A stretch of DNA of 64,000 nt from assembly GCA_019057385.1 (NCBI GenBank), contig JAHQJS010000005.1:128699-192698 (forward strand), given 5' to 3'. A model generated the notes under the pieces. That model searched no databases. It had not been told where the DNA came from and saw nothing but the letters and a program-made list of their open reading frames with translations. Position 1 is the stretch's first letter. Each line of letters opens with the position of its first letter. The translations under genes were made by a program, and so were the position numbers. Source of the stretch: Candidatus Borrarchaeum weybense (GTDB lineage Archaea > Asgardarchaeota > Sifarchaeia > Borrarchaeales > Borrarchaeaceae). Positions 10,839 to 62,833 of this stretch are shown here, piece after piece.

Positions 10839-11813
10839 ATGAGCCCCTTCGTCTCTATCCTTGTTCCTTGCTTAAACGAAGAAAATACTTTGCGTTCTCT
10901 TACAGGACGTGTTGAAAAGACTCTTGCTGGACTACAAAATATTCAATGCGAACTTATCTTTATAGATGATGGAAGTACAGACGAAACGGGGTCAATAATT
11001 GATCAATTAAGTCAAGAAATTCCATGGGTGAAGGCATATCATCATTCAACAACAAAAGGAAAATCTGCAGCCATAATGAACGGTTTTTACCATTCTAAAG
11101 GAAATATCATAATTCTATTAGATGCAGATCTGCAATTCTTTCCTGAAGACATTCCAGCAATCCTTTCAGAAATGACTCAGAAAAAATTAGATATTGTTAA
11201 TGGCTGGAGAAAGGAGCGAAAAGATCCTTTGTCCAGAAGGGCTGCATCTCGTCTCTATAATTCCTTTGCAAGTTCTCTCTTCGGACTAAAGGTTCATGAT
11301 TATAACTGTGGGATCAAAGGTCTAAAACGGGAGGTATTAGAATCCTTCAGATTAAGAAAAGGATATCATCGTTATATACTGGCCCTTGCAAAGCATCACG
11401 GGTTTCGTATAGGCGAAGTAGTAGTTCAACATGCCCCTCGCCCGTATGGAAAGTCTAGATACCGAACTAGTCGACTATTTGCAGGATTTGTGGATTTGAT
11501 GAGTTTAAAACTTCAATTCATGTTTATGGAGCGCCCCATGTCACTGTTTGGCGTGCTTGGCGCATTTATCTTCCTCCTCGGTCTTATTTCTGGAGCTTAT
11601 CTTGTATATCTTTGGTTTCTTGAAGGCGGTATTGGTACACGACCACTTCTCTTCCTTACAGTCCTCTTACTTGTTGCAGGCATTCAGTTTTTCTCATTTG
11701 GATTTTTAGCTGACGCAATTGCATCTTTAAAAACAGACGTTGATTATCTTAATCAATTAGTCATACAGAGGAAAGAAGAAAACACAAAAGGTCAATCACC
11801 CCCTAACAAGTGA
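10839..11813 (+). CDS. GT2 glycosyltransferase (ArnC/dolichol-phosphate type) with two C-terminal TM helices
   Basis: VPCLNEE, IDDGSTD, LDADLQ, HDYNCGIK; stop codon lies inside the adjacent element. Confidence 0.92.
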   Translation: MSPFVSILVPCLNEENTLRSLTGRVEKTLAGLQNIQCELIFIDDGSTDETGSIIDQLSQEIPWVKAYHHSTTKGKSAAIMNGFYHSKGNIIILLDADLQFFPEDIPAILSEMTQKKLDIVNGWRKERKDPLSRRAASRLYNSFASSLFGLKVHDYNCGIKGLKREVLESFRLRKGYHRYILALAKHHGFRIGEVVVQHAPRPYGKSRYRTSRLFAGFVDLMSLKLQFMFMERPMSLFGVLGAFIFLLGLISGAYLVYLWFLEGGIGTRPLLFLTVLLLVAGIQFFSFGFLADAIASLKTDVDYLNQLVIQRKEENTKGQSPPNK

Positions 11814-12199
11814 GGGGGCTTGTTCCGTGAGGAACAAGAGTAATTGGTTGATTAGCCTAAGAGAGGTCGTGGTGGAACACACATGACGGTATCTACGTTA
11901 TCAGGAGAGTTAAAGAACACACCAAGGGATGCTTCTCTAGTCCCGTGCTCTGTAAACGGTGGTTTAAACAGAGAGGAAACTCTCAGTGATCATCGTAGAG
12001 TACTGACTGATAACCTTGGCGAAGAGAACCTACTCCCCTGGTGTTGGGAGCGGCGGGACTTGCGAGTACCCGTTATTAAAACACCACCCGAGGTTGGGTA
12101 CACCAACCCCTGTCTTCGCAGAAAGGGTTGTGTGAGCAACGCTCGACCTCAATTCATGTATCCCCCCAACAAGTTGAGGGGTCTTCTTGCGAGGTAGTT
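11791..12199 (+). mobile_element. Non-autonomous IS200/IS605 element carrying a stand-alone IscB-type omegaRNA (HEARO-like), no iscB ORF
   Basis: GTCAATCACCCC..GGGGGCTTG, GTTGATTAGCCTAAG, CTACGTT, ACACC-GGATGCTTCTCTAGTCC, TAAACAG..CAGTG, AACCTTGGCGAAGAGA motif series; terminal AATTCAT-hairpin-TTCTTG-N10 then ATAAA. Confidence 0.85.
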
Positions 12200-52534: not shown

Positions 52535-52615
52535 AATATAAGGCATATCCCATCTATATAAAAACTTTACTACAAAGTATCAATACGTCAATCGTTGATC
52601 TAGAAAAAGTAAAGA

Positions 52616-52662
52616 TGGTGGGGACGGAGGGATTTTCAGAAAGAGAGACTTTCTCTCTTTTA
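52616..52662 (-). pseudogene. Displaced 3' end of tRNA-Trp with T-loop intron remnant (att-like direct repeat)
   Basis: 52616-52635 identical to 53505-53524; adjacent sequence matches the tRNA-Pro 59/60 intron. Confidence 0.8.
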
Positions 52663-52675
52663 TTTTTATTAATAA

Positions 52676-52997
52676 GTGAGCTACCTCGTGCGAAAGCATG
52701 GAGGCTTCCTGCTTCTCAGACGGACTCGATCCCCGTCCGTGACGGGTTACGGAGGTCGTATCTCCACAGGCTTAACATCCCTACGCCCCGTAGGTACGGT
52801 AAACGATGGTGAGACCATCGGAGTATGCACCTTGTCGGCAAGTGTTCCTGTTATCCCTCCAATTGCTGTTGATATCTTTCTCATTTCACCTATATAACTT
52901 GAGGCAGACCCCCCATTGCACATGATGCAAGTGAACATACACATCTACCGCAATTCATCACCACGCTGAAGCGCTGGTGCTTTCTTGCTTAGCTACT
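52676..52997 (-). mobile_element. Non-autonomous IS605 mini-element with TnpB-type reRNA scaffold and 45-aa remnant ORF
   Basis: About 120 bp near-identical to 46551-46668; left end closely resembles that of the TnpB element at 40032. Confidence 0.85.
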
Positions 52998-53078
52998 AGC
53001 AAAAAAAGTAAGATCAAACCTATAAAAACTTCTATTGAAAGAAAGCAAGAGTAAGATGACCCAGGAGTAGACGCCCTC

Positions 53079-53399
53079 TCAAAGTTTTGGGTCCGGGTCT
53101 TCGGTGTTTTCGCCACCTTCTTGTATCAGCAGCATCCGCATTGTTGACGATGCATGCCGGAATACCATTGCTTCTTGGTACTCAGGATCAGCTATCCAAG
53201 CCTCAACGTGAGTTTTGCTCGGAAACTCTAATATTACCATCCTATCTGTGTATGTCTCTCCTTCCAATGTAGTAACCGGTTCCCCGCGTGTGAGAAACTT
53301 CCCTTGGTACTTCTTCACTATGGGTGGTGTCCTATCCGTGTATTTACGATAGGTATCTGGATCATGGATCGCCATCATCGAAATTACATACGCTGGCAT
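53079..53399 (-). CDS. DUF1330 family protein
   Basis: MPAYVI..YRKY..KYQGKFLTRG..LEG..VILEFPS..YQ. Confidence 0.9.
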   Translation of the reverse strand: MPAYVISMMAIHDPDTYRKYTDRTPPIVKKYQGKFLTRGEPVTTLEGETYTDRMVILEFPSKTHVEAWIADPEYQEAMVFRHASSTMRMLLIQEGGENTEDPDPKL

Positions 53400-53504
53400 T
53401 TATTACTCTCCTATGGATATTGTTGAGTTCAACTCCACCGCGTTCAAAAGATTTGAATCGGTTAAGAGAAAAATATCATCTTACTGTATGATGATTCTTA
53501 AAAG

Positions 53505-53762
53505 TGGTGGGGACGGAGGGATTTGAACCCCCGATTCGAAATGAGACTTCCCTAATTTTGACTGATGTTTTTTGCCTCATTCTTCCGCCAACCGTGAGAA
53601 CCACGCCACGTGTTGCCATCGGGTTTCTCTGGTAAGCACAACTCCAGAAGATCTTCATCCTTCCGTCAGTTTTTGCTATTTACAACCTCTGGAGCCCGAC
53701 GTGCTACATTACCTCATACTAACCTACCAGAGATTAATACGAACTGGCTACACTACGTCCCC
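53505..53762 (-). tRNA. tRNA-Trp(CCA), four predicted introns (18/19, 37/38, 45/46, 46/47)
   Basis: GGGGACG/CGTCCCC acceptor, TCGGG-CTCCAG..A-CCCGA, GGGGG-TTCAAAT-CCCTC, encoded CCA; introns 53708-53743, 53625-53688, 53583-53616, 53535-53581. Confidence 0.9.
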
Positions 53763-55913: not shown

Positions 55914-56016
55914 GCCGCCGTAGCTCAGCTGGTAGAGCGTTGGACTTGTAATCCAATGACAGTTCTGCTATTCGCATAACTGGTGGAAGTCGAGGGTTCA
56001 AATCCCTCCGGCGGCT
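55914..56016 (+). tRNA. tRNA-Thr(TGT), one intron at 45/46
   Basis: GCCGCCG/CGGCGGC, TTGGA-CTTGTAA-TCCAA; 30-nt insertion 55959-55988. Confidence 0.93.
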
Positions 56017-56058
56017 TCATATACTGTCTCACATCCCAAAAGACAGTTTATTTAATGT

Positions 56059-56259
56059 GGGCGGGTGGTCTAGCATGGTATGATTCCGGATTTGGGTGCC
56101 CTCCTCTTAATGAGGAGACAAAAACATCCGGAGTTCTGCTTGGGTAACCCCAGCACGATACGGAATGACTCTACACGCGCGCTGTGGTGTCCCGTTTGCC
56201 GGGAGTTCGAAGGAATAGAGAGAAACCCTCTCTTTCTGAAAATCTCCCCTCGCCCACCA
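56059..56259 (+). tRNA. tRNA-Pro(TGG), four predicted introns (37/38, two tandem at 45/46, 59/60)
   Basis: GGGCGGG/CTCGCCC, CCGGA-TTTGGG..A-TCCGG, GGGAG/CTCCC, encoded CCA; introns 56097-56125, 56134-56165, 56166-56197, 56212-56242. Confidence 0.88.
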
Positions 56260-62414: not shown

Positions 62415-62611
62415 GCCGGGGTGGCTAAGAGTCGATGCATGAGGAAATTACCCTCACTACATCGATGAGAAGCCTGGTTATAGCGCCGGACACTTTCCGA
62501 GCCGGTTTCATAGAGAATATCCCAAGAAAGCCCTTTCTTGAGACATCCGGAGAGACGTTACACGCTGAGGTAATGTTCTGAAGGTCGCGGGTTCGAAGCC
62601 CGCCCCCGGCA
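62415..62611 (+). tRNA. tRNA-Met(CAT), probably elongator, four predicted introns (about 15/16, 32/33, 37/38, 45/46)
   Basis: GCCGGGG/CCCCGGC, GCTA/TAGC D-stem, CCGGA/TCCGG; introns 62430-62472, 62492-62507, 62513-62544, 62553-62583. Confidence 0.88.
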
Positions 62612-62662
62612 CTATCCTTAAAGGCTTGAGACACACCCTACGAAATTGATACATCATAATAA

Positions 62663-62833
62663 GCGGGGGTGGCCGAGCCAGGTCAATTTGCCTACAAGGG
62701 TCAGATCATAGGCGCTGGTGTGTGAGGCAACTGCTGCCTTATGCTACGAGACTTAAGATCCAGTGACGTAGGTCTACGTGGGTTCGAAAAGTTTTGGCGA
62801 AAGCCTTTTTCGGAAATCCCATCCCCCGCACCA
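62663..62833 (+). tRNA. tRNA-Leu(TAA), three predicted introns (D-loop, about 30/31, 59/60)
   Basis: GCGGGGG/CCCCCGC, CTTAAGA loop, long variable arm, encoded CCA; introns 62687-62709, 62719-62750, 62789-62816. Confidence 0.9.

Follow-up and report, generated by a model that had tools for sequence, protein, structure and literature searches.

A putative single-base exon between two mutually exclusive splicing motifs in an Asgard archaeal tRNA-Trp gene

The stretch of the Candidatus Borrarchaeum weybense genome analysed here (64,000 nt, henceforth the window) contains a tRNA-Trp(CCA) gene in which two introns, V1 and V2, appear to be separated by a single base, G46. With a probability of about 0.7, we infer that the locus is a functional tRNA-Trp(CCA) gene with four introns spliced by proteins, and that V1 and V2 are removed one after the other. 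The one-base exon is well supported by sequence and comparison. Since either G 53616 or G 53582 could supply the same base of the product, it cannot be proved from the mature sequence, and the case for it is made from the geometry of the bulge-helix-bulge (BHB) motifs and from homology.

We scored BHB motifs by the number of pairs in H (the central helix of 4 bp), in h' (the helix on the intron side) and in h (that on the exon side), with each cut placed behind the second base of its 3-nt bulge. An unfiltered scan of the whole precursor returned hundreds of chance motifs, and matches were counted only if they were tied to the cloverleaf register. The resulting features are as follows.

53762-53505, minus strand: whole tRNA-Trp(CCA) gene, 258 nt, CCA encoded, with five exons (19, 19, 8, 1 and 30 nt) and four introns
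53744-53762, minus strand: exon 1, G1-G18, with the acceptor 5' strand, the D stem 5' strand and AGCCAG (D loop)
53708-53743, minus strand: D-loop intron at 18/19, 36 nt, relaxed BHB with H 3/4 (GCC/GGU) and h' of 12 bp
53689-53707, minus strand: exon 2, G19-G37, with the rest of the D arm, the anticodon stem 5' strand and CUCCAG
53625-53688, minus strand: canonical anticodon intron at 37/38, 64 nt, with h of 7 bp, H 3/4 and h' of 3 bp
53617-53624, minus strand: exon 3, A38-G45, ACCCGAUG
53583-53616, minus strand: intron V1 at 45/46, 34 nt, relaxed HBh' with H CCG/CGG 3/4 (A43.G mismatch) and h' CAAC/GUUG of 4 bp
53582, minus strand: putative exon 4, the single base G46, placed by the boundaries of V1 and V2
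53535-53581, minus strand: intron V2 at 46/47, 47 nt, with H CGGA/UUCG 4/4, h' AUGAGGC/GUCUCAU of 7 bp and h of 1 bp in the primary transcript
53505-53534, minus strand: exon 5, U47-A76, with UC, the T arm, the acceptor 3' strand, discriminator A73 and CCA
53584-53588, minus strand: bases common to both the V1 and the V2 motif, by base-by-base assignment

The gene starts with GGGGACG UA GUGU AGCC and ends with GGGGG UUCAAAU CCCUC CGUCCCC A CCA. Around the putative one-base exon, the order from 5' to 3' is CCCGA (53623-53619, the anticodon-stem 3' strand), TG (53618-53617), 34 nt ending in GCGGAA, the single G, 47 nt, TC (53534-53533) and GGGGG (53532-53528, T stem). Removal of all four introns leaves a 77-nt product that ARAGORN reports as tRNA-Trp(cca) with a perfect cloverleaf: 7/7 acceptor pairs including G1-C72, A73 followed by CCA, a 9-nt D loop containing GG (AGCCAGGUA) and a 5-nt variable loop, UGGUC. 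The mature tRNA is thus predicted to carry ...CCCGAUGGUCGGGGG..., and the loop TG-G-TC foreseen in the first-pass annotation is recovered. When V2 was retained in the sequence, ARAGORN reported no tRNA. The D-loop intron at 53743-53708 is the sole single-intron model that yields a normal D loop (AGCCAGGTA), and it is identical in a congener (G004); two-intron models for the D loop were rejected, the single 36-nt intron with its 12-bp helix being preferred. The unspliced gene was not reported by ARAGORN and gave no Rfam tRNA at the gathering threshold; at E<=1 the sole Rfam report at the gene was a weak tmRNA-like match covering the T arm and acceptor end.

Upstream of the gene lie a 12-nt perfect palindrome (CUACAAUUGUAG, 53779-53768, minus strand), 6 nt from tRNA position 1, and an A/T-rich TATA-like box (UUUAAAAC) about 41-48 nt upstream. 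Within the gene, CUCUGGUAGG (53732-53723, D-loop intron) can pair over 10 bp with CUUACCAGAG (53636-53627, 3' end of the anticodon intron; both minus strand). This helix is part of the minimum-energy structure predicted by RNAfold and competes with both BHB motifs; as its sequence is the same in G004, covariation offers no means of judging it.

Comparison with relatives separates V1 from V2. The congener G004 is 98-100% identical across the first 160 nt of the gene, and a contig from an independent estuarine metagenome (L029) matches the G004 allele to the base. Both read GGCGGAUG directly followed by UCGGGGG, where the present gene reads GGCGGAAG, 47 nt and then UCGGGGG. Exactly the 47 nt of V2 are missing in both, and V1 is kept in both; V2 is therefore polymorphic, being present or absent to the base, and V1 occurs by itself. 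The G004 type was likewise seen in strains from three other studies, and DNA runs X5, X6 and X7 contained no allele other than that of the G004 type (with the T-loop intron and lacking V2), with positions 53540-53634 uncovered. The first base of V1 is A in G004, from which it follows that G46 comes solely from the 3' side of V1. An A is also the first intron base in L029 and in the tRNA-Thr(UGU) gene of the present genome, and position 46 likewise comes from the 3' side of a V1-type intron there.

That tRNA-Thr(UGU) gene is one of four other tRNA genes in the same genome with a V1-type intron at 45/46, next to tRNA-Gln, tRNA-Arg(CCU) and tRNA-Arg(UCU); the two Arg genes each have a single such intron. 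With arrows marking intron boundaries, the ends of the intron follow UG↓R...G(C/U)GGAA↓ in tRNA-Thr(UGU) and tRNA-Gln: tRNA-Thr(UGU) reads CCAA ug↓a CAGUU...AACUG GUGG aa↓g UC and tRNA-Gln reads UCGC ug↓a ... GCGG aa↓a, next to CCGA ug↓g CAAC...GUUG GCGG aa↓g for V1. Removal of the 45/46 intron gives clean tRNAs for the Thr gene and both Arg genes. Read base by base, V1, the anticodon intron of tRNA-Trp and the 45/46 intron of tRNA-Thr share the same H pattern of three pairs followed by one mismatch. By position and ends, V1 belongs to the 45/46 intron family of this genome. The tRNA-Thr(UGU) gene lies in the window at 55914-56016 (plus strand) with a 30-nt 45/46 intron; ARAGORN calls it tRNA-Tyr with an odd intron, a call that we rejected in favour of tRNA-Thr(UGU) with an intron of the V1 family.

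We compared the motifs with shuffled introns and with rival intron boundaries. No shuffle of V2 among 200,000 gave H of 4 with h' of at least 7 in the exact register, and only 13 of 200,000 gave H of 4 with h' of at least 6 in any of 25 nearby registers. The 7-bp stem that the first-pass annotation had drawn as ATGAGGC/GTCTCAT is real, with one G.U pair (53580-53574 with 53547-53541). The V1 motif is weak: H is 3/4, there is no h helix, and H of at least 3 with h' of at least 4 arose in 678 of 200,000 shuffles (0.34%). Among the 2,354 two-intron models that leave a variable loop of 4-6 nt, TG-G-TC with introns 53616-53583 and 53581-53535 ranks first, and its boundaries around G 53582 coincide exactly with those first proposed. 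Its score is 25 if V2 is removed first and 22 if V1 is.

The variable region could instead lose one 81-nt block, 53615-53535 or 53616-53536, in a single step that uses the 5' site of V1 and the 3' site of V2 and leaves no one-base exon. The first-pass annotation had offered the mature loop as the discriminating test, with UGAUC as the mark of a single long intron. That holds for excision of 53616-53536, which gives UGAUC, a loop seen in one Asgard ortholog (L006), but excision of 53615-53535 gives the same UGGUC as two introns do; because 53616 is also a G, UGGUC cannot discriminate between one intron and two. ARAGORN accepts both products. The motifs, however, speak against a single excision: the best reach only H 2-3/4 with h' of 0-1, and no single-long-intron model exceeds H 3/4 with h' of 1. 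G004 and L029 moreover show V1 alone with its own 3' site, and in its own register V2 has a motif that departs strongly from chance. We regard single-step excision as very improbable.

A different doubt is whether V2 is an intron at all, since it occurs in one assembly only, and that assembly has N gaps and 7% contamination. Relatives also differ from it in the 3' part of the gene, and some 870 nt downstream there is a second, partial tRNA 3' end, as might be expected if the V2-bearing allele were a dead gene or an assembly artefact from which V2 is never removed. We consider this very improbable. A junk insert would not come with a 4+7-bp BHB in precisely that register in which a 5-nt loop is restored, a combination found in none of the 200,000 shuffles; the remaining exons are all intact; and we found no other archaeal-type tRNA-Trp in the assembly.

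The assembly measures 4.18 Mb at 37% G+C and is rated 100% complete. Standard tools find about 20 archaeal tRNAs in it, and a regular-expression search combined with a T-arm and acceptor survey found no second archaeal-type tRNA-Trp. The other tRNA-Trp in the assembly sits on a contig (C1) that bears bacterial-style tRNA clusters and is probably contamination. The genome encodes two paralogs of the splicing endonuclease EndA (PF01974) and the ligase RtcB (PF01139). Asgard EndA has been assigned to the broad-specificity (alpha-beta)2 type with an L1 loop (PMC5829648); by that published assignment, the genome encodes, alongside RtcB, an EndA that should be fit for relaxed motifs. The only RNA run found, a metatranscriptome (share 0.06), placed no contigs on the tRNA-Trp locus and gave no verdict on expression or splicing.

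Returning to the reading with two introns around G46, we assigned each base near the junction to the motifs that use it. The H 3' strand of V1 spans 53588-53585, its paired part being 53587-53585, and the H 5' strand of V2 is CGGA at 53587-53584, the 3' end of V1. The 3' bulge of V1 (53584-53582) likewise overlaps the 5' bulge of V2 (53583-53581). Because three H bases (53587-53585) and the bulges are common to both, the two motifs are mutually exclusive on one molecule, and splicing must therefore run as cut, ligate, cut. This arrangement supports removal of V1 and V2 sequentially and never simultaneously.

The first-pass annotation had gone further and proposed an obligatory order, in which the BHB of V2 (CGAT/TTCG) forms only after V1 has been removed and its flanks ligated. 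The premise is not supported, as the primary transcript already pairs CGGA (53587-53584) with UUCG (53540-53537) through C-G, G-C, G.U and A-U, a full 4/4 at -8.0 kcal/mol. The CGAT/TTCG helix is nonetheless a usable motif once V1 has gone (-6.8 kcal/mol), with 3/4 pairs and a T.T mismatch. Of the proposed order, the impossibility of simultaneous cutting survives, owing to the overlap of the motifs, but V1-first is not required: both orders lead to UGGUC. An obligatory sequence of V1 then V2 is thus unsupported by sequence.

How, then, would the introns be removed? If V1 did have to be excised and ligated before the V2 motif existed, CGAU/UUCG with its 7-bp h' would still serve for V2 (H 3/4), and the second cut would strictly need prior ligation, so that G46 would never be lost. 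We consider this unlikely. The V2 motif is complete in the primary transcript, the model scores lower with V1 first, and the V1 motif, at -2.8 kcal/mol, is the weakest of the gene's four. Because the V2 motif of the primary transcript is the stronger, removal of V2 before V1 is no less likely than the reverse order. A rule described for Cyanidioschyzon merolae, in which the removal order of several BHBs in one pre-tRNA follows motif free energy (PMC3728597), would by analogy predict V2 before V1 here. Conformers constrained to one or the other of the two motifs have total energies of -23.1 and -23.9 kcal/mol, so near to each other that the order of removal is not settled by them.

In the mechanism that we propose, EndA would cut the four BHB introns and RtcB would join the exons, with maturation at V1 and V2 passing through cut, ligation, refolding, cut and ligation. 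V2 could be recognized before any splicing, with the 3' end of V1 taking the place of the 5' exon in the central helix. Were V2 removed first, the intermediate would be a G004-like precursor. Were V1 removed first, the ligated 5' exon would be needed for the V2 helix, and the second cut could never precede ligation. On the V2-first route, a cut at V1 made while the V2 junction was still unsealed would set G46 free as a mononucleotide, leaving a 4-nt loop, UGUC, in a product that ARAGORN still accepts. Taken as a whole, the idea that V1 acts as a surrogate exon for V2, its 3' end supplying the central helix and the overlap forcing cut, ligation, refolding and cut around a one-base exon, is tentative, and we put it at somewhat below an even chance.

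The alleles also bear on the history of the two introns. G004 and L029 carry a 31-nt T-loop intron that is absent here; that of G004 is a strict hBHBh' (H 4, h 5, h' 5). The congeners thus show two precise intron differences, V2 being found only here and the T-loop intron only in G004. These alleles document that intron turnover in tRNA-Trp is very fast: between the congeners, the variable loop and the T loop each differ by one gained or lost intron. V1 would be the older, family-type intron and V2 an allele-specific addition, more plausibly gained here than lost elsewhere. Searches for a V2 donor found none: blastn-short against the own genome matched the locus alone, BLAST with a 63-nt query against 400 Asgard genomes yielded nothing beyond A-rich matches at chance level, and the gapped V2 pattern had no match in JGI metagenome contigs. 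A metagenome scan with the conserved exon/intron junction pattern returned one contig, of the G004 type (L029).

Downstream of the gene, at about 52616-52666 (minus strand, about 870 nt away), lies a partial second tRNA-Trp 3' end, made up of the 3' half of a T-loop intron and AUCCCUCCGUCCCCACCA; 43 of 51 aligned positions are identical to the T-loop intron and 3' exon of G004. This partial copy may be a relic of insertion or integration at the tRNA 3' end. The segment of about 0.9 kb that separates it from the gene (about 52573-53479) begins about 25 nt past the tRNA and is not in G004. This segment encodes a DUF1330 protein of 106 aa (53079-53399, minus strand, Pfam E=4e-27) and includes about 400 nt without an Rfam match, and at least its tRNA-proximal end is present in the strains of DNA runs X5 and X6. 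A T-loop intron of the G004 tRNA-Trp family, GGAAUAGAGAGAAACCCUCUCUUUCUGAAA, also occurs in a multi-intron tRNA at 56058-56258 (plus strand) that both ARAGORN and Rfam missed.

The anticodon intron contains CUGA (53669-53666), GGAUGAAG (53660-53653) and CUUCUGGAG (53650-53642), all on the minus strand; the last, 9 nt long, is complementary to the anticodon loop CUCCAGAGG. The elements CUGA...GGAUGA...UCUGGAG are common to the Asgard tRNA-Trp orthologs L004-L007, L012 and L020, and the variable loops of Asgard orthologs read UGGUC, UGAUC or UGGUU. In euryarchaea, the anticodon intron of tRNA-Trp is a box C/D guide RNA with C, D', C' and D boxes that guides methylation of C34 and U39 (PMC4090602). 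The present intron resembles that guide in CUGA, GGAUGA and the complement to the anticodon loop; neither a C box nor a terminal D box was clearly recognizable in it.

The window and the assembly hold further RNA features. Another multi-intron tRNA, of about 200 nt, lies at 62586-62785 (plus strand; contig C5, 191284-191483). Its best variable-region BHB, CGGA ga↓g ... UCUG aa↓g, has H 4/4 and h' of 7 bp and would leave a 7-nt variable loop. An Rfam HEARO RNA, the guide RNA that accompanies ORFs for HNH endonucleases of the IscB type, occurs at 11791-12033 (plus strand, 128.7 bits), here in an Asgard genome. On contig C7, which lies outside the window, a gene resembling tRNA-Pyl(CUA) is called by ARAGORN at about 143743-143811 (minus strand), and a T-arm scan of the same strand of that contig found a CUA-anticodon candidate with the acceptor GGAGGCC/GGCCUUC.

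The closest published setting is that of Atabeyarchaeia and Freyarchaeia, in which 92-95% of tRNA genes have introns, many of them non-canonical (Valentin-Alvarado et al. 2024, PMC11291895). With its columns read as begins then ends, Supplementary Data 4 of that study lists up to four introns per gene and exons as short as 3-8 nt; among its entries is a tRNA-Trp whose introns are spaced like 37/38 and 45/46. In one tRNAscan-SE call, Atabeya-1 tRNA #25, a single base separates two introns that the authors took as one (PMC11291895). The study thus shares with ours the phylum and multi-intron tRNAs, but does not discuss a one-base exon, overlapping BHBs or splicing order. Thermoproteales tRNAs offer a second likeness, as summarized in PMC4033280 and PMC4090602 (work of Sugahara 2007/2008): BHB or relaxed HBh' introns at non-canonical sites, a broad-specificity (alpha-beta)2 EndA that cuts them, and intron families that recur at the same site across tRNAs. 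A maximum of three introns per tRNA is reported there (PMC4033280), compared with four here. In C. merolae, a eukaryote, the several motifs of a precursor fold independently and have no common nucleotides, unlike the mutually exclusive motifs described here (PMC3728597).

Exons of a single nucleotide are known from Arabidopsis (PMC4674806), placozoan cox1 (PMC5436844) and Fusarium CYP621A (PMC12940212). These too lie between two introns, but they belong to spliceosomal or organellar genes other than tRNA genes and their chemistry differs, being that of the spliceosome or of self-splicing. In our full-text literature search, every one-base exon lay between introns of the spliceosomal or organellar kind, and none was tied to splicing by endonuclease and ligase.

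If the reading with two introns around G46 is correct, one nucleotide would be the smallest exon of protein-catalysed (endonuclease/ligase) tRNA splicing, and the recognition elements of one BHB intron could be supplied by another intron. The gene would also provide a natural reporter and substrate for the coupling of EndA cleavage to RtcB ligation, in which loss of G46 would mark failed coupling. For genomes of this kind, it would explain why tRNA-Trp appears to be missing, as standard finders leave such a gene unreported.
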